From Eledone cirrhosa (lineage: Eukaryota), in the NCBI GenBank assembly GCA_964016885.1, contig OZ024756.1:38936001-39000000 (forward strand): DNA of 64,000 bases. Direction: 5' to 3'. Of this stretch, positions 19,627-53,361 are shown in pieces. The translations under genes were made by a program, and so were the position numbers. Below the pieces are notes generated by a model. The model was not told the origin of the DNA and did not search any database. It saw nothing but the letters and a program-made list of their open reading frames with translations. Each line of letters begins with the position of its first letter. The first letter of the stretch is position 1.

Positions 19627-19634
<8 letters not shown>

Positions 19635-19855
19635 TAAAATAACAGATTAAAGTTTAAGCAAAGAATCGCTGCTTTCACCCTTAACGGGATCTTCTGAAGT
19701 TTCAGAAGATCCCGTTAAGGGTGAAAGCAGCGATTCTTTGCTTAAACATTAATCTGTTATTTTAATAAATATTTGCTCTACGGTTCTTATATATTTGATA
19801 TATATTTATCCTTATCGAACCCTCTTTGGATTTTAGTCTTCAAATTTATTATTAT

Positions 19856-19860
<5 letters not shown>
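19627..19860 (+). mobile_element. Second family B fold-back element
   Basis: Arms of ~72 bp around GT (19699-19700); same tail as the first copy; hammerhead-like CAGAAGA-TCCC-GTTAA-GGG-T-GAAA. Confidence 0.8.
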
Positions 19861-19914
<54 letters not shown>

Positions 19915-19925
19915 GAGAGAGAAAT

Positions 19926-20343: not shown

Positions 20344-20411
20344 TCAGAGAGAGAGAGTGAAAGAGCCGGAGAGATAGATAGATAGGTAGATAGGTATATA
20401 TATTTATATAT

Positions 20412-25873: not shown

Positions 25874-25941
<68 letters not shown>

Positions 25942-25943
<2 letters not shown>

Positions 25944-26058
25944 GAAAAGAGTCAGGACCCCGACGGCTGAGCTCCGGTCGCTTCGACAGCTAGATCCGAA
26001 CTCTACTACCCTAAGTATTGAGTACTCTGGTGAGTTATAGTCCACCTGGTATCTTACC
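25942..26058. mobile_element. Family D element in inverted, non-duplicated configuration
   Basis: A minus-strand piece (GGAAAAGAGTCAGGACCCCGACGG...) is joined to the plus-strand 3' piece (ACTCTACTACCCTAAGTATTGAGTAC...); (TA)n on both sides. Confidence 0.75.
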
Positions 26059-26539
26059 ATATATATATATACACAGACAGACAGACATATATACATTTAT
26101 ATTTACATATATTTATTCCAATAGTAAAATATTTGAGTAGGAAGTTCTTCAGGATCTGAAGGCGGAGATGAACATTTATTTATTTTTTATAATTACATTC
26201 AATGTTTTTTGCCCCAAAATAGATAAATTGTTCCGCTTGCCATTATTTTAAATGAATCATTCTATAAAACGAATCTCACCTATCAGTCTAAATATAGAAT
26301 TATAAATATTGGTATCTGCTGATGTGAACCTATCAATAATCGATAAATGATGAATCTAGACGTATTTCTCCTCCTCCATCAGCGTAACATCCTATTATTC
26401 ATCACGTATTAACAGAAGTAAGAACAAATATAAATAGCTGTAAATATACTCATGTACATTTTTACACTTCGGTCGACTTCCATTGGTGTATATCTCAGCA
26501 ACTATATATCTGTGAATATAATCTCCCTAATAAAGTATC

Positions 26540-26867
26540 CTATGTCTTCTTGGGACGACCAGCGTTTCTTGCTCCATGAGATGGACTCCATAGCAACACA
26601 TCACCTGCTATTTCTTCCTTGCTGCGCCAACAGTGGCCAGCAAATCTGAGTCTCTGTCCACGTATTGACCTGCTGATAGGTGGTATATTGCCATAGAAAT
26701 CCATATTTGTTGGGTGTTCCCTCCAAGACACGTTTAAAGCAGCGCGGAGCATACTTGAGGACGATACTGGATGCACTGCGGAAGAACTGGCAAACGCTAT
26801 GAGAGACAGAGATGGATGGAGGAAACGTGTCGTAGTAAACCGAGCAAGCTCGACCTGATGATGATGA
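26540..26867. mobile_element. RTE-clade LINE insertion with a 5' inversion
   Basis: Minus strand 26540-26752 encodes MLRAALNVSW...RLRFAGHC...LLWSPSHG.RNAGRPKKT; plus strand from ~26753 encodes the continuation LEDDTGC..EELANAMRDRDGWRKRV and ends in (TGA)n. Confidence 0.85.
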
Positions 26868-26873
26868 ATATAT

Positions 26874-26907
<34 letters not shown>

Positions 26908-26999
26908 TCAATATATAGAGGGGAAAGACACAGAAGAGTGTGTTTTTCATTACAGGAGTTTCAAACCACCAACGTGAAGAGAATATAAGTTACTAGAGG

Positions 27000-27350
27000 C
27001 ATTGGTAAAACATTAAAACAGATTTGTAGCTCGGAGATGAGAGAGTCACTCCAGGTAGAGCCGCCTCTTCTCCGAATTGAGAGATCACAGCTGTGATACT
27101 ATGGGGCATGTGGTTAGAATGTCTCAGGTAAGAATCGCTGGACAGATTTTATGGGCAAAACCAACTGGCAGGAGACCCAGGGGTAGACCCACCCCGAGCA
27201 AGATGATTGGATAACATCCATTAGCTTGGCTGGTCTCACTTGGGAGATCTAGCCGGATCAGTTGGAGATGGTTGCTTCTGACAGGACCTGTTGGAAGGAG
27301 TGTTTGAAGAATAAGTGGGCGAAGAAGAAAACGCATAAGAAGAAGAGGAT
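27000..27350 (+). mobile_element. RTE-like LINE 3' fragment (second family), frameshifted
   Basis: VEPPLLRIERSQL..GHVVRM...RIAGQIL.AKPTGRRPRGRP; homologous pieces at about 29640-29905(-) and 52325-52395(-). Confidence 0.75.
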
Positions 27351-27744
27351 AGAAAATAGGAAGTTATAATGCTTCCCAAGAACATTAGCTCCATAATTGC
27401 TGTAACTTCCCACTTTTATTCTAAGGATCTAATATCTATTTACATTAATTAATGTTCTCATTTTCTCAATTTTAACTTTCCTTGTTTAATTTTACGTTTG
27501 ATTTACCAATTGAACTTTTATATTTGTATTTTTACTTCCACAGAGAAATAATTGGAGTTATATTGAAGAACTCTAATATATCTTATAACAAAATGTAATG
27601 AAATATTTCTACAATCGTACACCGAAATATCCAATTACAATAGAAATATCCCAATGAAAATTGCAATGAGTTATTTCATATCAAATTTTTTAAAGTTATT
27701 TCAAATCAATTAGTGTGTTATTTCACATAGGTTTGCAATCGAGT

Positions 27745-27935
27745 TCGTAGCAGTGAGGACTTCTGGTGTCCTTGGGTCTAGGGCCTAGGGCTACCTCCCT
27801 ACTCATCACCATCGGCCCAGAGCTGGCTACCCGTAGGTGTGAGCCTCGCTAGGAGCTGGAATGGCTCTTCCAGCGCGTCTCCCGCACCATCCTCCGAGGA
27901 AACGCCTTCTCTATTCTGTCCGTCAGGGCCGCGTG
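27745..27935 (+). mobile_element. CRE-type LINE 3' fragment
   Basis: Nucleotide similarity to the reverse complement of 60290-60465; AV.TSGVLG...ELEWLFQRVSRTILRGNAFSIL. Confidence 0.7.
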
Positions 27936-28010
27936 GCGTCCAGCGCGTTTGCACCCATTTGCTCATAATATTGAGTGATATAAAGCAGCTGTTCATAATG
28001 TTGAACCCGA

Positions 28011-28220
28011 CACTTGAGTGGTGGATTGGCAGTGTGAGTATAACGTCAGACAACTTGAGTGGTGGATTGGCAGTGTGAGTATAACGTCAGACAACTTGAG
28101 CGGTGGATTGGCAGTGTGAGTATAACGTCAGACAACTTGAGCGGTGGATTGGCAGTGTGAGTATAACGTCAGACAACTTGAGTGGTGGATTGGCAGTGTG
28201 AGTATAACGTCAGACAACTT
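28011..28220 (+). repeat. 41-bp tandem repeat x5 containing the SINE S1 head
   Basis: GACAACTTGAGTGGTGGATTGGCAGTGTGAGTATAACGTCA with period 41, followed by a decayed SINE body (28230-28295). Confidence 0.9.
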
Positions 28221-28454
28221 AGAAATATTTAGTTTCGGCCATTTATGTTACGAGATCAAATCCTGCCGAGGTCATCTTTGCTTTTCATCCTTCCGAATAA
28301 CTCACTGGGGTTTGATTTTATCGAATTTCTCCTTCCCCTTCAAATTGCTGACCTTGTGTCAAAAGCAGAAAAAATTATATTTAAACACACATCTTTAGAC
28401 TGTATTTCTCTGGGAAATATTGCTTTCGTGAGTTTAATATCGAATATTATTAAA

Positions 28455-28788
28455 GGTTAGCTTTGCCTTTCATCCTTTCGGGGTCGATAAAATAAGGTAC
28501 CAGTAATACACTGATGTCGATTTAATCGACTTTCCCCCTTCCCCCCAAATTGTTGGCCTTGTGCGTTAATCAGAAAGCATTATTATTATTCGGCAGTGGA
28601 TTGGCAGTATCGGTAGAGGGTCGGAGGCCATGCTTTGCAGCATAAAGTTACGGCCCTTTATGATCTGAGTTCAAATCCCGTCGAGGTTAACTTTGCCTTT
28701 CATCCTTATAGGGTCGATAAAATAAAGTACCTGTAATGCACTGAGTAATTGCTGGCCTTGTGCCAAAAGTAGAAACAATTATTATTAT
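28455..28788 (+). mobile_element. Two tandem SINE S1 copies (truncated plus full length)
   Basis: Full copy at 28591-28788: GGCAGTGGATTGGCAGTATCGG...GAGTTCAAATCC...GCCTTTCATCC...AGTAGAAACAATTATT. Confidence 0.85.
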
Positions 28789-29639
28789 TCGATGTAAAAG
28801 TCACAAATGCATTTACGTATCCATCGCTATGTTAGAGCGAAAACTAAATTCTAATTATGATGTTAGAATTACCTCAAAATTTCTATTTCACTTTAACCTT
28901 ACTAAACATATTCTTCTGTTGCAGTATTTTCACTGTTAAGCTCTTTTGTATATTTACTGTAGTTTCTCAATAATTGTATTTAAAATAATTGTAATAATGT
29001 TTTTAAAATACATTTTTTTTTTTTCAATTTTTAATCTCAAGGGCAAATGTATTTAAAAAGTAGAACAACGACAACAAAATTCTATTACAGTACTTGATGG
29101 ATAAAATGTCCTGAGAAATATTAAATGAAATATTATCAGAAACGAGTCAATAACACAGCTAATAATTAATTTTACTATCATTTATCAATTCTGAGAGCCG
29201 TGCAATTACATGAATATCAAAACAAGATTATTTATACTTTCTTTCTAAGACTTCAACATCTTCAACCATCACTAGTTGTCAATGATCAGGTTAACATAAA
29301 TTATTCGGTTTGAAATAGAGTACTAAAAAAGCTAAATATAATTAATATTGCAACGAAATATGATATTAAATTCATCAGATCACATTATTTCATTCTGGCC
29401 AAAAGATTATGTATATTTGCTTAAATATTGTTTTTTTCTTCTTGGTCAGTAGTCAGTAAGCAATGTTATTTCTGTCACCTTTAAAATGGAAACCAGACCT
29501 CCCACCTTAAGTATCGGATTCAACTTTATTAGCGGCTGTTTTACAACCAAATATAGAATGCCATACACCAATAGTTTAATATTTAAGGACGCCTAATGCA
29601 CATTTTCTCCACTGTCCTTGCCCTAAATTATGCAAATAT

Positions 29640-29905
29640 CTTCTTCTTTGCCCCCTTATTCATGGGAGGGTCGTAGGGCCGATAGAGTCTTCAATTACTT
29701 GTTCCAGCGGGTCTTGTCAAAAGCAACTGTCATCAATCGATCCCGCTGGTGGTGGTCGGATCCCCAAGCGAGACCAAACCAACCGAGCTCAAGGATGTTA
29801 TCCAACCACCTTGCTTGAGGAAGGGGTCTACCTCTGGGTCTCCTGTCGGTTGGTTTTGCCCGTAAAATCTCTGATGCGATTCTTTCCTGTATTCTCTCCT
29901 TTATT
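29640..29905 (-). mobile_element. RTE-like LINE 3' fragment
   Basis: ERIASEILRAKPTDRRPRGRP...RWLDNI.ELGW..VAFDKTRW. Confidence 0.75.
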
Positions 29906-30023
29906 GACTTCGAGAAAACCAATGATGTTATATTTTCCAAAAAGACAAAAAGAAGTTGAAGATAAATCAAAGTTGATATATTTTGTTAATATATTATAAA
30001 TATACTTAAATTATATTAACACT

Positions 30024-30312
30024 TTGGTTTCTAATATAGGCACACGGCCCGCAATTTTGGTGGAGTGGGAAAGTCAATTAAATCGACACCAGTGCATTAC
30101 TGCTACTTTATTTTATCGACCCCCGTAAGGATGAAAGGCAAAGCAGCCTCGGCAGGATTTGAGCTCAGATCGAAAAGGGGCGTAACACTATGCTATAAAG
30201 CATGTTGTCGGACGCTCTACCGATACTGCCAATCAACCGCCCTTACCAATAATTGTTTCCACTTTTGGCACAAGTACAGCAATTACTCCAGTGCATTACT
30301 GGTACTTTATTT
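30024..30312 (-). mobile_element. SINE S1 full copy plus an adjacent 3' fragment
   Basis: Same diagnostic motifs on the minus strand. Confidence 0.8.
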
Positions 30313-30460
30313 GTTAAAATATTAAATATATTAACATATTTTGAGCATACACTGTTCGATAGTTGTAGCAATTATCCCAGTGCATTACTGGTACTTTATT
30401 TGTTAAAATATTAAATATATTAACATATTTTGAGCATACACTGTTCGATAGTTGTAGCAA
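30279..30460. repeat. 89-bp tandem duplication spanning a SINE-fragment junction
   Basis: GCAATTA..CAGTGCATTACTGG...GATAGTTGTA starts at 30279 and again at 30368. Confidence 0.85.
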
Positions 30461-30886
30461 GTGTATTTTACGAAAAACTCTTCTGAGGTTTGGATTACGA
30501 ATATGCACCGAGTGACCGGTAAGCCTCCAGGTATTTCGTAAGCTCCGACATAAAATGCGAAACTAAATTGTTTTGTTATCTTCTCACGAAGAAAAGAAAT
30601 GACTACAGAGAAATGCAATGAAAATGAAATAATAAACAAGAAGAAAAGTAGTTGGCAACAACAATAATAACAACAACAAACAAAAAATGAAAGAAAAATA
30701 AAAGAAAATCTTCCGGAAATCTAATTCGCTAAAGACGTTTACACACCTGGATTTTTTCTCTATTGTTTCACTAAGATCTAATTTCTGTCTCTTTGCATAA
30801 ATGCTTACTTACTTACATATGTATGTGTGTGTGTAGATGGGGGAGAGAGAGTGTGTGTGTGGGGGGAGTGTGTGGGGGGAGTGTGT

Positions 30887-30929
<43 letters not shown>

Positions 30930-31016
30930 TGTGTGTGTGTGTGGGAAAGAGAGAGAGAGAGTTTTGTGTGTTTGTGTGTGTGGGAGAGAGAGAGTATTTG
31001 TGTGTGTGTATGAGTT

Positions 31017-31103
<87 letters not shown>

Positions 31104-31261
31104 AAGAGTGTATCTATGTGTATATTTATTAGTATGCTGGTGTGACTAAGCACGTGTTGCCAAATTTCTACCTCTTTCTTTTAAAAGGTTACCTTACCTC
31201 ACTTGTTCTGTCTCACCTAATATTTTGACACACTAAAAAAACCCAGATGATGGTAAGTCGT

Positions 31262-31312
31262 TCTCTGACGTCATCATAGCTTGTAGCCAATGATAAGAGA
31301 ATACGTCATCTC
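31262..31312. promoter_or_regulatory. CRE + CCAAT + half-CRE cluster
   Basis: TGACGTCA at 31266-31273, AGCCAATGA at ~31285-31293, TACGTCAT at ~31302. Confidence 0.45.
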
Positions 31313-31707
31313 CTTCAGGACTTGGTGAGGATGGTAAGTGGTGCATCATTCCATACTCTAACATTTAGTGATCACTCACTAAACTCTTCTCAGTACTTTC
31401 GTTCACCCTCGACTTTATCATTGCACCAGATCATGATAGGCAGTGCATTACCGCTGTGTCAACACACACACACACACAGACACGCATACATATACACACA
31501 CACACACACGCATACACACACATACACACACACACACACATACACACGCACATACACACAAACACACTCATATATATGTATATGTATGTATATGTAAATG
31601 TATACACACAAACAGACATGCACACATACACACAAACAAAGAAACACACACACACACATATATATATGTATACATACAAACACACATGCACACATACACA
31701 CGCACAA

Positions 31708-31750
<43 letters not shown>

Positions 31751-33630
31751 ACCACAAACTGACATGCACACATGTACACACAAATACGCACACACACATA
31801 TATACACATACATACATGTATATATATATACGTACTTACACACTCCACACATATTTAGTTATTTACCTAAACATTTTTACAAGAACTCAAGCAGATGCGA
31901 ATATGTGTTCTATAGACTATCAGACTTTACCAACCTTATGTTACCATTATTATGGCACCCTGCTGTGTTAGTGATAACTAGTACAAAGTAAGATCACATT
32001 GGTGATTGGTCGTCTTCGAATTGACGACACATTGCACTACCAAAGTTCACCAGAATAGAATTCTGAGGTTATTGCTTTAGCTGTACCAAACGTATCACGG
32101 ATATTTTCCGTGAATCTTTCGCTACGTATGTGTTACTTTCTTTCTTTCTATCTCTCAATAAATGAACTTTAGTTCCAAGAATTAGTACTAAATCCTCGTT
32201 GCCAAATAGGTCATTATATTTCTGTAATTAATCTTTATCATCTGTAAGACACGAACAGATCACGAAAGAAAGATCAGAGATATGGCATAACTGTATTTGA
32301 TAAAATATTGGCCTACCCACTCATAGCTCAGGTGTTCCGTTATCTGCAATCTGGGCGGAACACCTTATTCCATATTGCTTCAGTTCACTTAGTACCTGGA
32401 ATAGGTATTAGGTTACTTTTGGATACTAACCACAAGAAAAACTGACACCCTATACAGGTGGACATTTCCATCATCAACTACACACTATAACCGGATCTCC
32501 ATAGATCTATCATTTCCCAGGAAACAAATGACAAAAAAAACGAATACCAATAAATCAGAACTGACAGAGACATGACAACAACAAGAGAAGTTTGTAAAAA
32601 GGAACTACAAAATGTCGAACGTTCTTTAGCTAAAAAGCCATGATAAAAGATTTACTATGAGCAGATAAATACCAATGTATTTTAGACACAAAAATATGAA
32701 CTACTCGAATAAACATGGAGAGATTTCTTGTTTCTACGTCAATTTATTTCATTAACAGCTCTCTTGCATCACCAAACACCCCCAAAGACATCTGGTATTA
32801 CAATAAACATGTTAAATGAAAGCTTTCTAGATTTTATACAAAATAATGCTTACGGCTTACTTTAAAGTTTCAACAGCTTTATTTGATTCTAATGGAAAAT
32901 ATTCCCCCCTTAGTTATTATTTAACACCTTCCTACGCTGTTATATTCTGGCTTATTGCATATTTTAATAGGATTGTGGGATGTTCAGATGTTCAAAATCC
33001 TTATAATTGTATAAAGCAATGAAACCAGGATAGAAATAAGATTTTTGAAAAAGAAAATTATTTTTAATTGCAGTAAATTATTGAACCAAATACTACTATA
33101 GTTAATTCGATCATTATTAAATGATTGAATCATCCGATTATTTTTGTCACCATATATTTGTTTTAAAAGTAGAGAATACTTATTGTTTCAGGATATTGGC
33201 ATTGTGATTCACTGGTAAGACGGTCGCCCACACCTTTGTCAAGTTGATGTAATGTTATTTTACTTAAGAACATACTCGTTCTAATGTACTGCTGAGCTGA
33301 TGTGCTGATGTGCTGATGGAAAGAACTTCCTTTCAACAGCATTATACATGTTAATCGACTAAAAAACGACGAAACTTTATGTCAGCTAGTAATTTCTGTA
33401 ATTTTAGTATAAGCTGATACAAAGTAGCAAGGACCTGAAAGGTACATCATTGGCTGACTAATGTTTGTAAGACAGCTGTAGAAATAATTACGATGAGCGG
33501 TGGAGACTGTGACTATGTTGATGTCTATTAAAGTATTTATGTAATATTGAGAAAACAATTATCAACTAAATCTTATTACAAAATACATGCTATTGTTCTT
33601 TATATCTAGTCAATATGGAATTGACTAGAA

Positions 33631-33885
33631 GGCACATGGCTTAGTGGTTAGAGAATTGGGCTTGCAATCGAAAGGTTGTGAGTTCAATTCTCGGACCGGG
33701 TGATGTGTTGTTTCCTTGAGCAAGACACTTTATTTCACGTTGTTCCAGTTTACTCAGCTGTAGAAATGAGATGATAGGGACTGGGGTCCCTATCATTAAA
33801 TTACCCAAGACACCTCCAACGAGATATACCTTGGAGGAGGCCAGCTAAACCTGCATAGGTATGAGCTGTCACAACAACAACAATA
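33631..33885 (+). mobile_element. SINE family S2, full length
   Basis: tRNA-like head with A and B boxes, CORE-like centre, tail ...GAGCTGTCACAACAACAAC. Confidence 0.85.
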
Positions 33886-34488
33886 AGGAATTACAATATA
33901 TTTTCCGAACAGGCCCTTCTATCTAAGGTCTGAACGTGTCCCTTGTTAACACAAGTGAAGGACGATGTGGCATGGTTCTTTTTGCTACCTCTCACCATAT
34001 TGTAGTTTTGGTGGTCTTATTCGCACCAGTCTCCAATCTGGTACTTATTCAGACCTGCGAAGACAAGGCTTTTATAGAGGCGGCTTTTACTCACCTCGTC
34101 AGTGGGTTGTGAGTGTTTTCTTGGGAGCTAAAGGTGTTACCTATTGTTCCATCTTCTCAAGTAGTTTACCCTTGTTGGTCCAATGTTACTTATTCGACCA
34201 GCTGTTGCCTAATTATATCGCAACTAACCATCATATCTGGTGGCCGGATCGCTACCCACCACATGCGACCCGTTCTCTAGCAGAACAGCTCTGCTGAAAA
34301 AGGTAGTAGTTCTAAAAAAAAAAATGTTTGGGGCACATTCAGTCCAATGTTGTAATTACAGAATATGTGTGGTGAGAAGAGGTGAAACAGACGAATTAAA
34401 TGAGTGTAGTTAGGGGTGATATACAGACCTCTAGTTTAGAACTGCAGGGGTTGTTATAGTATAGTGGATAAAAGGTGGTTATAGTGAA

Positions 34489-34738
34489 GGCGCATGGCTT
34501 AGTGGTTAGAGTATTGGGCTTGCAATCGAAAGGTTGTAAGTTCAATTCTAGGACCGAGTGATGTGTTGTTTCCTTGAGCAAGACACTTTATTTCACGTTG
34601 CTCCAGTTTAATCAGCTGTAGAAATGAGATGATAGGACTGGGGTCCCTATCATTAAACCACCCAAGACACCTCCAACGAGATATACCTTGGAGGAGGCCA
34701 GTTAAACCTGCATAGGTGTGAGCTGTAACACACACACA
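34489..34738 (+). mobile_element. SINE family S2, full length
   Basis: Near-identical to 33631-33885. Confidence 0.85.
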
Positions 34739-34876
34739 CATAGTGTACTGGCTAGAATATGGTTCTAGCATGTTAATGAGTGAATGTTTCACAATCAACC
34801 CGATGGAATTCTTTTGAAAACATTCTTGAATGTTAGTGAGTGTAGCGGATAATATTAAGACATTGCCCTTTACGGA

Positions 34877-35020
34877 CTGAGTTCAAATCTCACCGAGGTT
34901 AACTTTGCCTTTCATCCTTACGGGGGTCGATAAAATAAAGTACCAGTAATACACTGGGGTAGATTTAATCGACTTTCCCCTCCCCCAAAATTGTTGGCCT
35001 TGTGCCTAAATCAGAAACCA
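34877..35020 (+). mobile_element. SINE S1, 5'-truncated, long variant
   Basis: B box through tail, with the extra GATTTAATCGACTTTCCCC segment. Confidence 0.8.
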
Positions 35021-35172
35021 TGATTTTATTAGAATCCATACATGTGGCTTCTGTAGAGTCAACAGATGTTTTAAAGCTGGAATTGGTTCTGAGCCTGAAG
35101 ACAAAAACCTAGGATTTGAGACAGAGTTTTGGCAGATATTCAAGGGAGTAAACCAAGGTATAAGTTGTAAAT

Positions 35173-35208
35173 TGTGTGTGTGTGTGTGTATGTTTGTGTG
35201 TGTGTGTA

Positions 35209-35275
<67 letters not shown>

Positions 35276-35359
35276 TTACATTGTGTCTGAATGTATGTGT
35301 GTACTTATGTCTGAGAAAGTGGGCAACAAATGTAAGAAAAAGTTGTATATATGTGTATT

Positions 35360-35411
<52 letters not shown>

Positions 35412-35424
35412 TGTCTGTATGTGT

Positions 35425-35461
<37 letters not shown>

Positions 35462-36125
35462 TGTCTGTATGTGTGTGTGTGTGTCTGTCTGTATGTGTGG
35501 GTGTGTGTGTGTGTGTTTGTCTGTATGTGTGTGTGTCTGTCTGTATGTGTGTGTGTGTGTCTGTCTGTATGTGTGTGTGTCTGTCTGTATGTGTGTGTGT
35601 GTGTGTGTGTGTGTCTGTGTGGGTGTGTGTGTGTGTGTGTCTGTCTGTATGTGTGTGTGTCTGTCTGTATGTGTGTGTGTGTGTGTCTGTCTGTATGTGT
35701 GTGTGTGTGTGTGTGTGTGTCTGTCTGTATGTGTGTGTGTCTGTCTGTATGTGTGTGTGTCTGTCTGTATGTGTGTGTGTGTGTGTGTCTGTCTGTCTGT
35801 CTGTGTATATATATGTGTGTCTGCCTGTCTGTGTATATATGTGTGTCTGTCTGTCTGTCTGTATATATGTGTATGTGTGTGTCTGTCTGTATGTGTGTGT
35901 GTGTCTGTCTGTCTGTATATATATGTCTGTCTGTCTGTCTGTATATATATGTGTGTGTGTCTGACTGTATATATATATATACATATATATATGTGTGTGT
36001 GTGTATGTGTGTGTATATATATGTGTGTCTGTCTGTCTGTATATATATATGTGTGTCTGTCTGTCTGTATATATATGTGTGTCTGTCTGTCTGTATATAT
36101 ATGTGTGTCTGCCTGTCTGTATGTG
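35173..36125. repeat. Compound (TG)n/(TCTG)n/(TA)n microsatellite
   Basis: Direct reading. Confidence 0.95.
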
Positions 36126-36320
36126 AGTAGGGAATGAAGTGTGTACGAATGTGTGTATAATAGACAGATAATATATACACACCGTAATTTACAGTGATGT
36201 TTATTTAACTATATTATACTATATACTAATGAAATAGTAGTAACCACCAGACGAGATAAATTGTGTATAATATACAGATATATATATATATATATACACT
36301 GTAACCCACAATGGTAGATA

Positions 36321-37665
36321 CTAAACTATATTAAACTATATTAAACTATATTAAACTGTACTGAACCATATTAAACTATACTAAACCATATTAAACTATA
36401 TTAAACTACACTAAACTATACTAAATTATATTAAACAATACTAAACTATATTAAACTATATTAAATTACACTAAACTATACTAAATTATATTAAACAATA
36501 CTAAACTATATTAAACTATATTAAACTACACTAAACTATACTAAATTATATTAAACAATACTAAACTATATTAAACTATACTAAACTATATTAAACTATA
36601 TTAAACTATACTAAACTATATTAAACGATATTAAACTATACTAAACTATATTAAACTATATTAAACTATACTAAACTATATTAAACTATATTAAACTACA
36701 CTAAACTATACTAAATTATATTAAACAATACTAAACTATATTAAACTATACTAAACTATACTAAACTATATTAAACTATACTAAACTATATTAAACTATA
36801 TTAAACTATACTAAACTATATTAAACGATATTAAACTATACTAAACTATACTAAACTATATTAAACTATATTAAACTATACTAAACTATATTAAACTATA
36901 TTAAACTACACTAAACTATACTAAATTATATTAAACAATACTAAACTATATTAAACTATATTAAACTATACTAAACTATATTAAACTATATTAAACTACA
37001 GTAAACTATACTAAATTATATTAAACAATACTAAGCTATATTAAACTATACTAAACTATATTAAACTATATTAAACTACACTAAACTATACTAAATTATA
37101 TTAAACAATACTAAACTATATTAAACTATACTAAACTATACTAAACTATACTAAATTATATTAAACAATACTAAACTATATTAAACTGTATTAAACTATA
37201 CTAAACTATATTAAACTATATTAAACTACAGTAAACTATACTAAATTATATTAAACAATACTAAGCTATTAAACTATACTAAACTATATTAAACTATATT
37301 AAACTACACTAAACTATACTAAATTATATTAAACAATACTAAACTATATTAAACTATATTAAACTATATTAAACTATACTAAACTATATTAAACTATATT
37401 AAACTACAGTAAACTATACTAAATTATATTAAACAATACTATACTATATTAAACTATACTAAACTATATTAAACTATACTAAACTATAGTAAACTATATT
37501 AAACTATATTAAACTATACTAAACTATATTAAACTATATTAAACTACAGTAAACTATACTAAATTATATTAAACAATACTATACTATATTAAACTATACT
37601 AAACTATATTAAACTATACTAAACTATATTAAACTATATTAAACTATACTAAATTATACTAAACT
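36321..37665. repeat. 10-bp satellite (YTAAACTATA)n, ~1.35 kb, with higher-order blocks
   Basis: CTAAACTATA/TTAAACTATA units; recurring cassette TTAAACTACA-CTAAACTATA-CTAAATTATA-TTAAACAATA. Confidence 0.95.
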
Positions 37666-37844
37666 AATACAATAGCAGTAAGTAGCAGTATAAGAGATAC
37701 TCTGTGTAATAGTTTGGCAATTCTCCCACTTAACGTTTTTACACCCTGTGTCCATCTGACGTCACTAACAAGTGCTGCTGACTATAGCCGTCATCAATAT
37801 CCAGTACAGATTTCTCAAATTCTCTATTTTAGTTCTTGTTACAT

Positions 37845-38160
37845 CTCTTTCTCTCTCATCTCTTTCTCATCTCTCTCTCATCCCTCTCTCATCTCTTTCT
37901 CATCTCTTTCTCATCTCTCTCTCATCTCTTTTTCTTCTCTTTCTCATCTCTCTCTCATCTCTTTTTCTTCTCTTTCTCATCTCTCTCTCATCTCTTTTTC
38001 TTCTCTTTCTCATCTCTCTCTCATCTCTTTTTCTTCTCTTTCTCTTCTCTCTCTCTCTCATCTCTTTTTCTTCTCTTTCTCTTCTCTTTCTCTTCTCTCT
38101 CTCATCTCTCTCTCATCCCTTTCTTTTTCTCATCTTTCTCTCATCTCTCTCTCTCATCTC
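37845..38160. repeat. Pyrimidine-rich (CT/CAT) minisatellite
   Basis: Repeating TCTCTTTTTCTTCTCTTTCTCATCTCTCTCTCA-like units. Confidence 0.85.
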
Positions 38161-38256
38161 TGTTGCTGCTCATTCTACTCTTGTTTGTTCAGTTGTTTCA
38201 GCTCCTACATTAAATCGGCGTCACCAGTTTATTGAGACACTTATTTATTATTATTA

Positions 38257-38900
38257 TTCAAATCCCGCCGAGGTTAATTTTGCCTTCAAATCCCGCCGAG
38301 GTTAATTTTGCCTTCAAATCCCGCCGAGGTTAATTTTGCCTTCAAATCCTGCTGAGGTTAATTTTGCCTTCAAATCCTGCTGAGGTTAATTTTGCCTTCA
38401 AATCCCGCCGAGGTTAACTTTGCCTTCAAATTCTGCTGAGGTTAATTTTGCCTTCAAATCCCGCCGAGGTTAATTTTGCCTTCAAATCCCGCCGAGGTTA
38501 ACTTTGCCTTCAAATTCTGCTGAGGTTAATTTTGCCTTCAAATCCCGCCGAGGTTAATTTTGCCTTCAAATCCTGCTGAGGTTAATTTTGCCTTCAAATC
38601 CTGCTGAGGTTAATTTTGCCTTCAAATCCCGCCGAGGTTAATTTTGCCTTCAAATCCTGCTGAGGTTAACTTTGCCTTCAAATCCCGCCGAGGTTAATTT
38701 TGCCTTCAAATCCTGCTGAGGTTAATTTTGCCTTCAAATCCTGCTGAGGTTAATTTTGCCTTCAAATCCCGCCGAGGTTAACTTTGCCTTTCATCCTTAG
38801 AGGGTCGATAAAATAAAGCACCAGTAATGTACTGGGGTCGATTTAATCGACTTTCCCCTCACCCCCAAAATTACTGGCCTTGTGCCTAAATAAGAAACCA
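38257..38900 (+). repeat. 19 x 28-bp tandem array derived from inside SINE S1, followed by the SINE 3' half
   Basis: TTCAAATCCCGCCGAGGTTAATTTTGCC with period 28 from 38257 to 38788, then TTTCATCC...GTCGATAAAATAAAG... Confidence 0.95.
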
Positions 38901-38927
38901 TTATTAATATTATTATTATTGTTATTC

Positions 38928-39004
<77 letters not shown>

Positions 39005-39554
39005 ATCTCTATCTCTATCTCTATCTACCCCCCCCCCCCCTATATCTCTCTCCCTTTCTTATCTTTTACAACGATGGCTAATAGGTTATATAGCATACAG
39101 TTCACCATTGTCCGTTGCACCTAGAAATCGTTGAATCAGAACGGTGTGCTCTGACGTCAATGGTTTTAAAAGCACCCAATAGATTATCTCACAAAAAACA
39201 AAAGAGGAAGGAAGGAAGACAGAGAGAAAACGAACTCTGCGTAAAATAGGCGGAAACAGACGAATGCAAGGTGATGTCAACAGGTAGAGAGATGTTTACT
39301 GTTAAGAGTGTACCATGATGTCAACTGGTAGATAGATGTTTTCTGTTAGAGTGTGCCATGATGCAAGAACAACGAACGAACAAAATAGGAAAACAATTAT
39401 ATTCCATGGTGTATTAACCGGCTTGTACTTAGATATTAGTGTTAACATGAAACATGCCTGCTCTGAAGAGCGACCCGTGTCATGATAGTCCTGCATACAA
39501 ATGGCGGCAGATATATTCGGAGGTAAGGAATCCATTGTGGGAGTATGAAATGAG

Positions 39555-39958
39555 ACAAGTGTGTGAGTGTATGTGTGTATGTGGTGTGTGTGTGTATATA
39601 TATATGTGTGTGTGTGTGTGGGGGGGTCATGTGTTTGTATGTGTGTGTGAGTGTGTGAGAGGGTGTATGTATGTATGTGTGTGTATGTGAAGATTGGTCA
39701 TGTGTGTGTGTATGTCTATGTGGTGTGTTTGGGTGTACGTGTGTGTATGTTGTGTGTACGTGTGTGTGTCATGTAAGTGTGTGTATGTCGTGTGTGTATG
39801 TTGTGTGTATGTGTGTGTGTGTGTGTATGTGTATGTGTGTGGTGTGTGTCTGTGCGCGTGTCTATGTGATGTGTGTGTATGTACGTGTGTGTGTCTATGC
39901 AGTGAGTCTATGTGTGTGTGTCTATGTGATGTGTGTGTATGTATGTGTGTGTGTGTGT

Positions 39959-40041
<83 letters not shown>

Positions 40042-40052
40042 TCTGTGTGTGT
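39555..40052. repeat. Degenerate (TG)n microsatellite
   Basis: Direct reading. Confidence 0.9.
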
Positions 40053-40582
40053 ATCTGATGAAAAGTAATTACGGGTATGATGGGGTATATATGTAATGTG
40101 AATATCTTAATAGCGGGAAATAGGTGTAACGAAAGAGTTGATGGGAAACTGCAATTAAATGTATTTTAAGGATAATATAGAAGGTGAGCTATTTTTGGCT
40201 CTGGATAGAAGGGTGTGGTGTCGAACTGGATGAATGAAGGAAAGAGAGATGTAAATAAATGTATGAGAAAAATTACAAAAAAAAACAAAACAAAACAAAA
40301 CCTTGATGCAGATTAAAGCAATTATTTGCACCAAGATATACATCACAGGCAAAAATTGAACCTAAAAAAACTATATTTATATTTATATTTTTAACTGTTG
40401 GTTAATCAATGATAAATATTGATTGCCAGCTAAATTATTTATAGAGATATAAAAATATACTGTAGTGAAAATCAAACCAAACAGTGAGTGTGTTTTACTA
40501 TATATTTCTGGCAACATGATGTTAGACTGTTTACTTGTGGTAGTGACACTGCTAGTGTTAATATAAAGATGGACAGGGTATA

Positions 40583-40663
<81 letters not shown>

Positions 40664-41052
40664 CAAATAGTGAAAACAATGAAATTAAACAAAATACGGG
40701 TAATTCATAGTAAAACTCATTATTTTACGATCGTTTCTGGGGGTAATTCTCCGTATGTTCATTCTATAGTGATCTATGAGTTCTTCATACGGCTTGGACC
40801 CTACCATTAATTGGTAGATTTATCTGTGTGTGTATATATATAAATAGTGGCGGACTGGGTCTAAAAATATTGGTTGCCAGGAGATGAAGGGGCCCACCTA
40901 CATCATTTAATTTTTATAATGAATAAAGAACATTTTCGAAAAATACATAAGTGGAAACAACACAATGCAATCAGATTTTTGCAGGAAAATATCTTACGTT
41001 CTCCAATAAAAAATATGTATTTTGCGAAATCCAGAGACTTTCAATAATGACC

Positions 41053-41548
41053 AGAAGTCGACCCTAAATATTACTAATAGCTCTGGGGAAGCCATGAACG
41101 ACACCAGATCTTTTAAACTTTGAAAGTAGGTTTATAATTATCAATTTTCATTATACTTTTGTAGCTGTCTCGGTGGCCTAGTTGGAGGAATCATAGACGG
41201 TGGTGATCTTGGTCTGAAGTTCGATACTGATCGGGAGTAGAATTCCCGGTAAACCTTTTCAGTTTTTTTCTATTGGTTGTAAAATAAAAACTGAAAAAGG
41301 TTACATGCACCTCTTAACCAGGATTGAACCCCAGGCCAGGATCTCCACCCTCTCGAGTTCCTACCGTTAGACCACAGAGACAACTACGAAAATGTTATGA
41401 AAATTCATACTTATAAACCTACTTTCAAAATGTTCAAAACAAAGTGTTGTTGTGTCATGTCTTTCTTAATGTTATTGCTCCTACTTAGGGTCGACTTCTA
41501 AATCATTTGGGTGTTCCATAAACTACATCCTCGATTTGTTTCTCGTCT
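41053..41548. mobile_element. Dispersed palindromic element with two convergent tRNA-like units (copy 2)
   Basis: Perfect 15-bp inverted repeat AGAAGTCGACCCTAA (41053-41067 / 41485-41499). Plus unit: A box 41174-41185, B box ~41218-41227. Minus unit: A box 41364-41374, B box GGTTCAATCC 41321-41330. Confidence 0.8.
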
Positions 41549-41657
41549 ATCTAGATTATATTTTAACCTGTAATCCATCTTTCCTTTCTGTTGCATCTCA
41601 TTTCTCTCTCTCTCTTCCTCTCTCACTCTCTCTGTGATATTTGAATCTCCTATGATT

Positions 41658-41740
<83 letters not shown>

Positions 41741-42432
41741 ATATATCTATCTGTATATACTGTTTACCTTCCCTAAGCGTCATTGACCTCAACAATTTAT
41801 TAAAGAAATCAGGAATTATTTTCTCCAATCATTAGAAAATTTCGAAATCACTTTCAGCGTCAGAGTTAAGCCTCAGTTGACTTTCATGACGGGAAATGTC
41901 GTTAAATATAGAGTCAGCTTTAGATATAAACCACATGCTGCTGCAAGTGATCAACAAACTTGTTGCGGTGATTGAACTCTGCAATGGTAGTAGAGTTCAG
42001 CCACTAATCAGTCTAAAGTGCTAAGATTAGAAAGGCGATTTAAACAAAAGGGTGAATGAACTTGATTGGAATTTAAATTTTATAGAACTCTAAACTAAAT
42101 ATGATGATTTCTAAACTGATATCGGCTCCAAGAAGAAGATTTGTCTCGTTTACGTTAGACAGTTTCCAAGGAGAAGTAAGAACCTAAATAGAATGAAATA
42201 AGAACAGCTAAGTATTTTGATTTCCTACAGAGATTAAATAATGGATGCTTTTAAGAAGTAAGGAGCATGGAATGTCTTTGTAATAATTTCTTTCTGTAAT
42301 AACGAAAGAGAATGAAAAGCAAAGCGAAATCGAAACTGCATACACACACACACACAAAGACAGACAGACACACACAGGCAGACATACACACATACACACA
42401 CACACACACACACAAATGATATATATATATAT

Positions 42433-42652
42433 TAGTTTACAAGGTTTTTGATATGAAATCGTGTGTCGAAACAAATATTGTTATACTTGGGGAGGGTCAT
42501 ATTGTTGTAATAATATTGCCAGAAATAATAACAGAACACACTCACTGTTTGATCGGTTTTCGCTTCTGTATCTTTTATACCTCCATAGTTAATTTATTTG
42601 GCCATCAATGTTTATCATTGACTGACCAACGGTTAAACATACAGATATAAAT
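42433..42652 (+). mobile_element. Family E single copy in (TA)n
   Basis: Matches the arm of the 24029-24292 palindrome and extends beyond it. Confidence 0.8.
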
Positions 42653-42956
42653 ATATATATATAGTCTATCAAAGTTCTTTCGTCGCACATCTGGAACATC
42701 ATCAGTGGTACTATTTTATGTTCCCTCCTATTGTATTGTATTGTAATGTTTACCCTTATAGGGTTACTCCCATTATGAAGGGAGTAACCCTGGTCAAGGA
42801 CAGCCGGGAAGGATATGGGTCCGGCCCATTCCTTCAGAACAACCTGATAAAAGTACATTAAATCAAACATAGAAAAACCAATGTAAATGTCTGAAGGTGG
42901 ATCAATATATAACAATCGTGTGGCATAAACAGGCGAATAGTTACAGCCGTAAGAAC

Positions 42957-43265
42957 TATCATCGTCATCGTCATCGCCATCATCGTCGTCATCATCATCA
43001 TCGTCATCGTCATCGCCATCATCGTCATCATCGTCATCATCGTCATCATCGTCATCGTCATCGTTGTCATCATCATCATCGTCATCATCATCAACATCAT
43101 TGTCAACAACAATAACTGCTACATCAACAACAACTTCAACAACCCGAACAACAACAGCAACAACAATAACAACAATAACAACAACAACAACAGCAACAAC
43201 AACAATAACAACAACATCAGCAACAACAGCAGTAACAACATCAACAACTACATCAAAACTACATC

Positions 43266-43296
<31 letters not shown>

Positions 43297-43530
43297 CCAA
43301 CAACAACAGCAACCACAACACCAACAACAACACCAACAACAACAACAGCAACCACAGCACCAACAACAACAACATCAACAATATCAGCAGCATCAAATAC
43401 AATGTACAACAGGCAATAACAATATTATTAAAATAATAGAAGCGATAGTAGTGCTACTGACAACAGCAACAACAACAACAGCAACCACAGCAGCAGCAAC
43501 AACAGCAACAACAACAACAACAGCAACATC

Positions 43531-43571
<41 letters not shown>

Positions 43572-43958
43572 CCACAGCAGCAACAACAACAGCAACAACA
43601 ACAACAACAACAACAGCAACCACAGCAACAGCAACAACAACAGTAACAGCAACAGCAACAAACACCACCACAACAACAGCAACAACCACAACAGTAACAA
43701 CAACAACAACAACAGTAACAACAGCAACAACCACAACAACAACAACAGTAACAACCCTAACAGCAACAACCACAACAGTAACAACAACAACAGTAACAAC
43801 AACAACAGTAACAACCCTAACAGCAACAACCACAACAGTAACAACAACAACAGTAACAACAACAACAGTAACAACAACAACAGTAACAACCCTAACAGCA
43901 ACAACCACAACAGTAACAACAACAGTAACAACAACAACAGTAGCAACTAAAGTAATAA
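42957..43958. repeat. Compound trinucleotide repeat (ATC/GTC)n, then (ACA/GCA/GTA)n
   Basis: Direct reading; includes short higher-order duplications near 43700-43930. Confidence 0.9.
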
Positions 43959-44114
43959 CAGCTTCTGTTTACTCTATAACTAACAACACACTGTTGGCCG
44001 ACATATTGTTGTGACGTCATTATTATTAAGCCACTCAATCTACAGTTTGGAAGATTAAAAGTTATTTCTTTTTTTCTTTCCCAATGTTTATTTTGTCTAA
44101 TTCTTTCTCTATAC

Positions 44115-44117
<3 letters not shown>

Positions 44118-44186
<69 letters not shown>

Positions 44187-44526
44187 GTATATATATATAC
44201 ATACACATATATATATGTATGTATTTTATATATATATACATATATATACATATGTATCTATATATATATACATACATATATCTATGTATTTTATATATAT
44301 ATACATATATATATGTATGTATTTTATATATATATACATATATATATGTATGTATTTTATATATATATACATATATATATGTATGTATTTTATATATATA
44401 TACATATATATATGTATGTATTTTATATATATATACATATATATATGTATGTATTTTATATATATATACATATATATATGTATGTATTTTATATATATAT
44501 ACATATATATATATGTATGTATTTTA

Positions 44527-44562
<36 letters not shown>

Positions 44563-44580
44563 CATATATATATATGTATG

Positions 44581-44616
<36 letters not shown>
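44118..44616. repeat. (TA)n with an embedded ~30-bp TA-derived minisatellite
   Basis: ATGTATGTATTTTATATATATATACATATAT units. Confidence 0.9.
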
Positions 44617-44619
<3 letters not shown>

Positions 44620-44670
44620 AACTTTTAGTGAACAAACAACAACAATGTCTAGTCAGGAACATTTAAAATG

Positions 44671-44975
44671 CCACTGCCAGTACCACCACCACTACCACCA
44701 CCCAAACCACCACCTGTACCACCACCCAAACCACCACCTGTAGCACCACCTGTACCACCACCACCTGTACCACCACCAGTACCACCACCCAAACCACCAC
44801 CTGTACAACCACCACTACCACCACCACTACTACCACCTGTACCACCACCACTATTACCTCCACCACTACCACCACCCAAACCACCACCTGTACTACCACC
44901 ACTACCACCACCACTACCACCACCACTACCACCACCAGTACCACCACCTGTACCACCACCCATACCATCATCCAC
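44671..44975. repeat. (CCA)n-rich degenerate repeat
   Basis: ACCACCACCTGT / ACCACCCAA / ACCACCACT units. Confidence 0.9.
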
Positions 44976-45061
44976 AGCACCACGTCTTCATCACTTCTAA
45001 CATCAAAGAAAAGTCTTATGTTTTATTGTTTCTACAAACACACCATAGCATGGTACTTTTA

Positions 45062-45225
45062 AATAATTGTTTCTACTTTAGGCACAAGGCCAGCAATTAT
45101 CCCAGTGCATTACTGGTACTTTATTTTATCGACCCCGTAAGGATGAAAGGCAAAGTTAACCTCGGCGGGATTTGAACTCAGATCGTAAAGGGACGTAACT
45201 ATGCTGGAAAGCATATCCGACCTTC
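45062..45225 (-). mobile_element. SINE S1
   Basis: Diagnostic motifs on the minus strand. Confidence 0.85.
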
Positions 45226-45371
45226 TTAAAAAATTATTTTTTAAAAAAGATTTAAAAAAATTTTCGCAAAAATTTTTTCAAAATTTTTCTCAATATATTT
45301 TCAATATTTTTTCAATATTTTTTCAATATTTTTTCAATATTTTTTTTTTTTTTTTTCAATATTTTTCAATA

Positions 45372-45520
45372 TCGAACTGATAAGGTATGATTTTTCTCTA
45401 TTTATAAAACAAACTTTGTATTTTATCTGAAGAAAGCGTATCAAAGTCTTTTGGTACCCTTGAAATATATATAATAAAATAAATATGGTTTTATAAATAT
45501 AGTTTCCATTTATTTAATAT

Positions 45521-45527
<7 letters not shown>
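45372..45527 (+). mobile_element. Family G-related Penelope-like terminal repeat with a hammerhead core
   Basis: CTGAAGA (45427-45433), 12-bp imperfect stem AAGCGTATCAAA/TTTGGTACCCTT, GAAA (45462-45465); flanks match 48630-48752. Confidence 0.7.
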
Positions 45528-45569
<42 letters not shown>

Positions 45570-45584
45570 ATATTTATTTAATAT

Positions 45585-45647
<63 letters not shown>

Positions 45648-45712
45648 TATATAGAGAGAGAAAAAGCTAGATAGATAGATAAATATATAGATAGGTAGAT
45701 AGAAAGACAGGC

Positions 45713-45780
<68 letters not shown>

Positions 45781-46234
45781 CTAGATAGATAGATAGATAG
45801 GCAAACAGATAGATAAATAGACATAGAAATGTATATATATATATATATATAGTATATATATAGTCATATTTATATCTAAATCCAGTAACATCCAGTAATA
45901 TCTTCCAAGTGTGTACTTGTACATATATTAGAAATTCTATATTTGAAACCAAGACGCCATAGATTATATGTATTGTTCGTTGTTGTTGCTTTAATTATAT
46001 CCGGAAGCTCTAGTTGACATTTTATATATTTCTTATAGTCAGTCTCATTTGTGAAATGAAATGATTGCTGCATTTTCTAACACTTATACCACGAGTGTCG
46101 ACATGTGCTTTCGTGCAAAATAACATGATGAGAAAATAACTGACGGTTTTTTTTTGTTTTAGTGGAAAAAAATACACAAAACAAACATTTCTAATATTTG
46201 AAGTGTATGTATGCGATTCGTGTAGTAGCTATTT

Positions 46235-46272
<38 letters not shown>

Positions 46273-46273
<1 letters not shown>

Positions 46274-46442
46274 GTTATTCCGGGTTGAATCGGAGGTAAC
46301 CACAGTAAGTAAGGTACTCAATACATAGCAGAGTATAAAAGTTTTAATATAGATGAGATTCTACAGGACTAGAACTGTTTCATTCTTTAGAAATCATCAG
46401 GAATGAAACAGTTCTAGTCCTGTAGAATCTCATCTATATTAA

Positions 46443-46445
<3 letters not shown>
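46273..46445 (-). mobile_element. Family C fold-back element with a hammerhead core
   Basis: Minus strand reads CCTGATGA-TTTC-TAAA-GAAT-GAAAC-AGTTC; 45-bp arms 46341-46385 / 46401-46445; (TA)n on both sides. Confidence 0.8.
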
Positions 46446-46480
<35 letters not shown>

Positions 46481-46539
46481 GAATCATGTAACCTCAGCAT
46501 CTTATTTTGTTATTTATATATATATATATACATATATAT

Positions 46540-46738
46540 AACGAAGGAAGTGTGGTAAGGAACCAGGTAGATCATAACGCACCAGAGTACTCAATACTTT
46601 GGGTAGTAGAGTGGGTAATAGGAAAATGTTCAGGACCCCGACGCAGAGCTCAATCCGTTTCGACGGCTATTTCTGGACGTCCAGAAATAGCCGTCGAAAC
46701 GGCTTGAATTCTGCCATGGGGGTCCCGAACATTTTCCT
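46540..46738 (-). mobile_element. Family D fold-back element
   Basis: Palindrome centred on GGAC|GTCC (46678/46679) with ~60-bp arms; unique tail to the left; (TA)n flanks. Confidence 0.8.
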
Positions 46739-46750
46739 ATATATATATAT

Positions 46751-46908
46751 AGTAATAATAATAAATGTGAAGACTAAAATCCGAAGAGGGCTCGATAAGG
46801 ATAATATATATATATAAAAATATATAAAACCATAGAGCAAATTTCAGAAGCTCCCGTTAAGGGTGAAAGCAGCGATTCTTTGCTTAAACTTTAATCTGTT
46901 ATTTTAAT
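46751..46908. mobile_element. Family B element in inverted, non-duplicated configuration
   Basis: Reverse-complemented tail (46751-46842) joined to the plus-strand TTCAGAAG...ATTTTAATA segment. Confidence 0.8.
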
Positions 46909-46932
46909 ATATATATATATATAGCTAACTGA

Positions 46933-47375
<443 letters not shown>

Positions 47376-48325: not shown

Positions 48326-48389
<64 letters not shown>

Positions 48390-48391
48390 TA

Positions 48392-48845
48392 TACAATATT
48401 AAATAAATGGAAAACTATATTTATAAAACCATATCTATTTCATTATATATATTAACAATATGCTATGCCTTCATCAGACAAAATACAATATAAACAGTTT
48501 TATAGATAAATATATTCGACATACCGTAATAAACATCAACTTCATTTGAAGAGGTTCACTCTAGCAGTGAACCTCTTCACATGAAGTTGATGTTTATTAC
48601 GGTATGTCGAATATATTTATCTATAAAACTGTTTATATTGTATTTTGTCTGATGAAGGCATAGCATATTGTTAATATGATATCCCCGAAATATATATATA
48701 ATGAAATAGATATGGTTTTATAAATATAGTTTTCCATTTATTTAATATTGTAAATATACTCCAAGTATTTGTCGAGTGCTTTTATATCAGTTATAAATAT
48801 TTACTAGTTGTAACCCAACAATTTTAAATATAACTTTACATGTAT
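48392..48845 (+). mobile_element. Family G fold-back element (~360-bp palindrome) with a long-stem hammerhead core
   Basis: Arms 48392-48560 / 48566-48752; CTGATGA at 48649-48655, stem GGCATAGCATATT/AATATGATATCCC, GAAA at 48687-48690; unique tail to ~48845. Confidence 0.8.
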
Positions 48846-50528: not shown

Positions 50529-50571
<43 letters not shown>

Positions 50572-50729
50572 AAAGATATTCAGAAATAACAACACAATCG
50601 GTACAGTATATGGAAGGGATATATTAGGTTAACGCTTGATATAGCAGGAAGAGGGTCTTAACGTTTCGGACGCTAGTCGAAGAATATAGACAAAAATGTT
50701 GATAATAATTTTGAAAGAATATTTATTGA

Positions 50730-53320: not shown

Positions 53321-53361
53321 TATGTTAATTATTATTTCCAGGGTATTTTGTTTTAATTGAT

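Follow-up and report, generated by a model that had tools for sequence, protein, structure and literature searches.

The window analysed here is a 64,000 nt stretch of Eledone cirrhosa contig OZ024756.1 (positions 38,936,001–39,000,000, forward strand; genome 3.0 Gb), which is AT-rich and contains many (TA)n tracts. Set amongst these tracts are short palindromic and inverted insertions, of which two families, designated B and D, form the subject of this study (Table 1). Paired insertions comprise a short arm and a tail arm in opposite orientation, forming a palindrome where the arms duplicate a common segment and a pure inversion where they do not. TA tracts lie on both sides of most of the copies inspected, which is the (TA)n insertion behaviour of the Hydra clade of Penelope-like elements (PLEs). 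Within each family, positions are numbered from 0, the first base past the inner end (E2), with the outer end (E1) falling at +89 in B and +77 in D. A first-pass annotation of the window had proposed that D short arms at 46738, 56922, 63041 and 25942 share an internal end, and that family B occurs as palindromes at 19397 and 19627 and as a pure inversion at 46751–46908; both observations are borne out, with the centres of the two B palindromes differing from each other. In the D copy at 25942 the short arm terminates in TTTTCCT, which adjoins the TA tract, and the tail arm lacks the segment present in the short arm, as had also been noted. It begins at +6, leaving ~6 nt missing, overlaps the short arm by 4 nt (ACTC) and ends ~11 nt before E1.

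Judged on their sequence, families B and D are stumps of Hydra-clade PLEs in (TA)n, each made up of a pseudo-long terminal repeat (pLTR) plus a tail. Upstream of B there is coding sequence for a reverse transcriptase (RT; YRDDG) and a GIY-YIG-like endonuclease (EN), and upstream of D an EN related to that of B. The order in B is a putative transcription start at −71, E2 at 0, E1 at +89 and the ATG of the open reading frame (ORF) at +134, and the tail of D leads on into the start of an RT gene, in a similar ORF that begins 93 nt past E1 (L256). Two frameshifted B copies, L161 and L162, display units of ~3.3–3.6 kb in the order pLTR, tail, ORF, 3′ untranslated region (UTR) and pLTR, with a single ORF encoding RT and then GIY-YIG EN, as in EN-containing (EN+) PLEs. 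Other EN+ PLE features found here are a pLTR formed by partial tandem, in which pLTR plus tail continue into the ORF in both B and D, and an inverted 5′-truncated copy with a one-sided tail. As the pLTR and tail run into the ORF, whole elements bearing a tail in their 5′ repeat were predicted to end at E2; this held for both near-full-length B copies examined (2/2; L161 and L162), which finish at E2 with the tail absent.

Assignment to the Hydra clade rests on comparison by eye with PMC8557442, including proteins from its supplement: RWR and DKT are present in both families, together with CNCRNRVDC (the CxCX5C linker) in B and CNCPDGSIC in D. A homologue search returned 136 proteins, which among the matches listed are mostly of 700–760 aa, many with PF26215, and a GIY-YIG (PF01541) cluster occurs amongst the look-alikes; no significant match emerged when pieces of the ORFs were scanned directly against Pfam and PDB. 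An origin of B and D as miniature inverted-repeat transposable elements (MITEs) or short interspersed elements (SINEs) was rejected, given the attached RT–EN ORF. By eye, the pLTRs of B and D contain the GAAA, stems and cleavage triplet of a hammerhead ribozyme but have variant cores (the B short arm at 46842–46908 displays a hammerhead-like fold with core CAGAAG, stem II and GAAA), and minimum-energy folds miss the hammerhead. An Rfam scan of the window recovered, among the matches listed (150 of 259), only microRNA-like hairpins and tRNA, and no hammerhead. Several D arms (L278, L265, L099 and copies on the contig of the window) begin at or beside the predicted hammerhead cleavage site (GUC, element −19 to −21), a possible sign of cutting by a variant ribozyme.

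To place these copies in context, arms were counted in 1.18 Mb of unselected DNA plus the window (1.244 Mb in total), and in bystander copies within the flanks of search matches, with 302 tail arms called. Matches to two long-arm queries (first 60 loci) were excluded from every position count as biased. Twelve rows were removed from these counts (tandem duplicates, TA-confounded or weak cases and internal deletions), and 10 start positions were adjusted by eye, with uncorrected counts given alongside. Beyond the window as within it, the short arm of D terminates exactly at 0 in 54/72 paired unselected insertions; that of B terminates at +2/+3 in 16/33 pairs, the aligner having mis-extended nine more into TA-like words of the tail. 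Such a concentration of short-arm ends is far beyond chance. Moreover, of the 102 B arms extending past −13, ~58 (counted by eye) end at E2, and of the 51 that pass +16 none ends at the 7–8 nt TA words found at +18 to +38, so that the inner site is fixed and not selected by the length of TA homology. All four ends (E1 and E2 of both families) lie at a TAT word followed by GCTC or ACTC within ~8 nt, the TAT representing a match of ~3 nt to a (TA)n primer. Folds predict a stem from the TAT word behind E1 of B and behind E2 of one B subfamily, and none behind E1 of D. The microhomology available at E2 is not enriched.

The two sites are 78–90 nt apart, both upstream of the ORF start, and almost all paired insertions have one end at each. 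A tail is found on both ends in only 3/72 (D) and 1/33 (B) paired unselected insertions, indicating that each DNA end receives one of the two sites. The rare tail/tail insertions (L115, L139, L317 and L332) correspond to the product expected of two outer-site primings. With regard to the D palindromes, both arms carry the same subfamily variant (≤1 edit) in 63/85, in comparison to 22 % between insertions.

Amongst unselected B tail arms, 14/47 start at −75 to −66 and 17 at −10 to +10, with just three at −45 to −11 and four at +11 to +45; the peak at E2 is significant (p ~1e-6; uncorrected counts 15/5/7 of 51). When restricted to insertions with intact short arms, the B tail arms at E2 number 11/15, a count from which tail-only fragments and forms with short arms of 10–17 nt were excluded, as hairpin deletion can produce them. 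Pattern counts across the genome found 169 places in which a B short arm reaches the start site and has the word at +3 no more than 8 nt beyond it, against 84 for the word at −37 and 55 for that at −28, which served as the two upstream control windows. Raw stops at E2 are therefore 2–3 times those in equal upstream windows, and as arm orientation was comparable in only 9/20 (−37) and 18/20 (−28) of the first control matches (by eye), the corrected excess is ~3.4–4.5-fold. The upstream control junctions rely on microhomology; those at E2 are varied, many having short filler and not a direct repeat. A peak of stops at E2 is expected if both copies share one RNA. In this respect, the proposal that the first cDNA halts at the second primer is partly supported: stops at E2 are more frequent than elsewhere in B as a whole, but the peak is absent from one of its subfamilies (2 versus 8) and weak in D. 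Furthermore, the clean two-outcome process originally envisaged does not survive, as intermediate stops are common: the outcomes are fairly read as a continuum whose main mode lies at the 5′ start, joined in most of B by a second one at E2. The B subfamily with the E2 peak (L162 compared with L301) has GAGC at +44 to +50, predicted to pair with GCTC just past E2, and the subfamily without the peak has GAAC there. Four unselected B tail arms start at +55 to +61, near the 3′ foot of this GAGC/GCTC stem.

At the palindrome centres, arm starts accumulate at the A of TTAGTT in B (−71) and of TTAGTC and TTAGTT in D (−60 to −62), with 38/83 D tail arms starting at −65 to −56. TTAGT words resemble the initiator consensus, and work on L1 has described copying of the RNA cap as an extra G. 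Whilst 54 B arms contain the start A with the templated T next in 37, the 17 others were reduced to 14 by exclusion of a long copy with a point change, a mis-hit and a double-counted strand. Of the 14 arms ending there, 11 have an extra G before the start A (three of these possibly derived from the partner arm). Similarly, within the first 100 of the 169 genome-wide B junctions, the cDNA strand adds C 35 times and G six times (by eye). The extra G at the palindrome centre is likely to be a copied cap. In Drosophila, transcription of Penelope starts at an initiator near the 5′ repeat (PMC2377424).

Taken together, these data probably reflect a process in which both ends of one (TA)n cut prime a single RNA at two fixed internal sites, giving rise to palindromes and inversions alike. 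The element enzyme would cut both strands of the tract, with each 3′ end priming reverse transcription, a part of the earlier proposal that is supported as likely. The template would probably be one capped transcript starting at the initiator-like A in the pLTR, on which two enzymes begin at E1 and E2, 78–90 nt apart. Both cDNAs would be short, running off the RNA at its 5′ end and often gaining an extra G as a copy of the cap; joining of the two cDNA 3′ ends, with 0–4 nt of overlap or filler, would then yield a head-to-head palindrome. Were the E1-primed enzyme to stall where the E2-primed one began, a pure inversion would result, and stops between the start and E2 would make the palindrome lopsided. 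Where transcription reads through tandem copies, priming at this pair of sites in the downstream repeat could generate long and full-length insertions.

Several observations weigh against this account. The B subfamily obtained with the tail query has no peak at E2 (2 versus 8 of 23; Fisher p 0.005 against the other subfamily), and in D there is at most a step at this position (unselected copies 11/14/3 of 83 at E2, upstream and downstream, respectively; tail-query copies 1 versus 5 of 22; distal-tail copies 7 versus 6 of 55). The genome-wide stop test rests on two upstream controls, with no control on the tail side. B pure inversions are slightly more diverged than palindromes (1.5 versus 0.6 edits per 45 nt; n=12 and 8, respectively), leaving room for later change. 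Concordance of arms can also result from gene conversion, or from a single active source per cell, and an equal peak would be expected from enzymes on a separate RNA that stall where a protein is bound. Target duplications are illegible inside (TA)n. The start site and cap are deduced from DNA only. Finally, D is less clean than B: amongst 40 non-templated cases in D1, the start A is preceded by C in 22, G in 15 and A in three, and the account leaves a recurrent D junction, TTC/AGTCC, unexplained.

Of the other explanations, the one in which each DNA end is served by its own RNA, with dimer or cut geometry assigning the sites and a protein or RNA structure at E2 stalling tail-primed copies, is rather unlikely. 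It has been stated for L1 that genomic data cannot tell twin from dual priming (PMC2837659), and separate RNAs would allow palindromes without displacement of a first cDNA. Dependence of the E2 peak on subfamily suits this scheme, the peak subfamily being the one in which a stem is predicted to close immediately past E2, although a hairpin would be expected to block at its 3′ foot (~+50) and not at 0. Similarly, some ~8/85 D palindromes have discordant arms (≥3 edits, with four mis-picked segments set aside), yet private variants are mostly common to both arms. An independent choice of sites would, moreover, generate many tail/tail and no-tail/no-tail pairs, at odds with the scarcity of tail/tail pairs given above. 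Far less probable is a single priming event after which the cDNA, or an antisense RNA, folds back and primes itself, EN resolution leaving the tail behind. Self-priming was proposed in PMC3846280 and EN-mediated resolution of the tail in PMC8557442, and the prevalence of symmetric centres (78/135 D pairs within 10 nt, the commonest form) is as such a model would have it. A copy cannot, however, contain sequence missing from its template, and in 26/46 B and 44/135 D pairs, which fold-back of the tail copy cannot produce, the short arm exceeds the tail arm by >10 nt on the 5′ side. At least 169 B insertions have non-overlapping arms, and L161 couples a 3.6 kb E2 arm with a tail arm of at most 9 nt. 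For pure inversions, fold-back is thus refuted, as their arms hold sequence that the template copy lacks.

Slightly less credible still is the possibility that every insertion starts as a palindrome, with pure inversions arising by later deletion of the duplicated part of one arm, which we judge to be very improbable. Palindromes are unstable, B pure inversions are slightly more diverged, and tail-only fragments starting near 0 and forms with 10–17 nt short arms would fit hairpin deletion. Nevertheless, hairpin slippage takes both arms, whereas the inversions counted here retain an intact short arm through to the extra end base, and many E2 junctions have short filler instead of a direct repeat. 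Least probable of all, and refuted as stated, is the literal L1-like model of the first-pass annotation, in which one primer engages the RNA 3′ end and the other a chance internal TA microhomology, with two discrete outcomes. All four ends do adjoin a TAT, by which ~3 nt would match the (TA)n primer. The outer start is, however, inside the RNA and not at its 3′ end, as the tail continues into the ORF in both B and D, and the inner site is fixed, with the nearby longer TA words unused (0/51) and intermediate stops frequent. Descent from one palindromic master was rejected on the basis of varied junctions, in keeping with the earlier view that insertions formed afresh, their centres and junctions being different. 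An assembly fold-back artefact was likewise rejected, as the arms differ, the tail is asymmetric and the centres are varied.

Table 1. Copies of families B and D, and of a third family of like layout, within the window
Feature	Position	Strand
(TA)n target tract, left of D pure inversion	25883–25940	
Family D short (inverted) arm, element −62 to 0, from E2 to putative transcription start, followed by C (possible copied cap)	25942–26002	−
Family D tail arm, +6 to ~+66; forms a pure inversion with the short arm at 25942	26000–26058	+
Family B tail arm of pure inversion, +2 to +89	46752–46842	−
Family B short arm, −69 to E2	46842–46908	+
Family D palindrome; tail arm 46541–46678 (−), short arm 46679–46738 (+); both arms to ~−59	46541–46738	
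Family B palindrome; short arm −55 to +3 (−), tail arm −57 to +89 (+)	19397–19601	
Family B palindrome; short arm −68 to +3 (−), tail arm −71 to +89 (+); centre at putative transcription start	19627–19858	
Family D palindrome; tail arm 56726–56864 (−), short arm 56863–56924 (+)	56726–56924	
Family D palindrome; tail arm 62851–62982 (−), short arm 62979–63043 (+)	62851–63043	
Family D short arm without tail partner	49682–49750	−
Unpaired family D short arm (no tail arm), terminating in TTTTCC at TA tract	57700–57763	+
Third family, like layout (tail arm plus shorter inverted arm), canonical CUGAUGA...GAAA hammerhead core	46273–46445	

Beyond families B and D, a canonical hammerhead core is present in two further palindrome families of the window (46273–46445 and 48387–48757). 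In the former, which also occurs at 57790–57977, several arms begin AGATTC after a G, where long copies have C or T. In the region 46237–47372, insertions from different families, at least four in number and either palindromic or inverted, are nested back to back with a TA tract between each, and it would seem that the TA flanks of older insertions are reused by new ones. At 58012–58272, a 29 nt piece of family B is present three times between long TA tracts, likely as a result of slippage amplification. Another repeat family (13385–13574, 50531–50678 and 62479–62652) contains a canonical minimal hammerhead (CTGATGA-stem-GAAA), these copies being non-palindromic, and a ~430 bp repeat (19918–20344 and 41053–41552) with imperfect long inverted ends is closer to a MITE than to a PLE stump. 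The window also includes a tRNA-headed SINE family (16749–16922, 33628–33873, 34485–34736 and 53358–53611; Rfam tRNA match at 16763–16820), and a tandem array of 28 bp units (38257–38790) derived from part of an interspersed repeat common in the window. Elsewhere in the genome, the entire 10 kb of locus L091 (G000:C7:30000001-30010000) is a satellite of ~277 bp period, with a weak 47 nt match to the B 3′ UTR.

With regard to known systems, B and D are new members of a known clade, with an architecture that is already in print. They share with the Hydra-clade C-terminal EN+ PLEs of Craig et al. (2021; PMC8557442) a single ORF of ~700 aa encoding RT and then GIY-YIG-like EN, the RW(K/R), DKT and CxCX5C marks, insertion into (TA)n, a putative pLTR hammerhead (hammerhead-like by eye in B and D), and an inverted 5′-truncated copy with a tail at one end. 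This last arrangement is a published hallmark of PLEs (PMC8557442, PMC3846280). Differences lie in the tails, which are 78–90 nt here against the 30–40 nt quoted for PLEs, and in the hammerhead cores, which deviate from CUGANGA; the available text of that paper gives no junction counts and describes no non-overlapping inversions. Pen2a_Av and its relatives (Arkhipova et al. 2013, PMC3846280) similarly display head-to-head inverted pLTRs, junction palindromes and a one-sided tail, which were explained there by self-priming on an antisense template, an explanation contradicted by the pure inversions described herein. For the Poseidon element PAc, cutting and extension of both strands have been shown in vitro, the tail being bounded by two internal sites at which RT starts (Frangieh et al. 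2024, PMC11167929). This system, although of a different clade, resembles ours in its two internal start sites, lack of long target–RNA homology and predicted dimer; its text, as far as available, assigns no site to either strand, and does not put forward that the inverted pLTR derives from one RNA, that enzymes collide at the inner site or that copies run off a capped end.

L1 twin priming (PMC2837659, bioRxiv 10.1101/2024.12.14.628481) likewise involves a second target end that primes inside the RNA, an inverted 5′ part and junctions with short overlap, deletion or filler. In L1, however, the first primer engages the 3′ poly(A) of the RNA, and the inner site varies, being set by chance homology to the target; neither of these is found here, where both sites are fixed and internal. 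Additionally, and unlike L1, most tail arms read through, with a duplicated centre as the commonest result. The first-pass annotation had held that such a mechanism may be undescribed. As far as the short-arm end is concerned, this does not stand, since it corresponds to the published PLE tail signature (PMC8557442, PMC3846280, PMC11167929); on the other hand, literature searches, which did not extend to subscription papers, revealed no study in which twin priming or cap run-off is invoked for PLEs, and PMC11167929 was the only relevant paper among the matches listed for PLE mechanism from 2023 on. New here are the tally, across the genome, of tail arms that stop at the inner site, and the evidence from the extra G.

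The formation of PLE inverted repeats and tails is termed undefined in PMC8557442 and left open in the available text of PMC11167929, and the double priming proposed here would account for this long-known but unexplained shape. The E. cirrhosa genome constitutes a very large natural sample of PLE junctions, which argues against the published idea of self-priming. For the in vitro system, it is predicted that each strand uses one start site, that copying stalls at the inner site, and that cDNAs run off the RNA and copy the cap where transcription starts. The same process would explain genomes that are rich in palindromes of 150–250 bp, which annotation tools would read as MITEs or microRNA hairpins. 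In a broader proposal, about as likely as not to be correct, the default route of integration for Hydra-clade PLEs, and perhaps for all EN+ PLEs, would be for one capped RNA to be primed twice close to its 5′ end at two signal-defined sites, with an enzyme dimer making two tandem cDNAs of which the trailing one displaces, or collides with, the leading one. If this is true, the inverted pLTR, the tail, the mini-palindromes and the pure inversions would all follow from a single mechanism, and tandem read-through transcripts would be needed to move the whole element.

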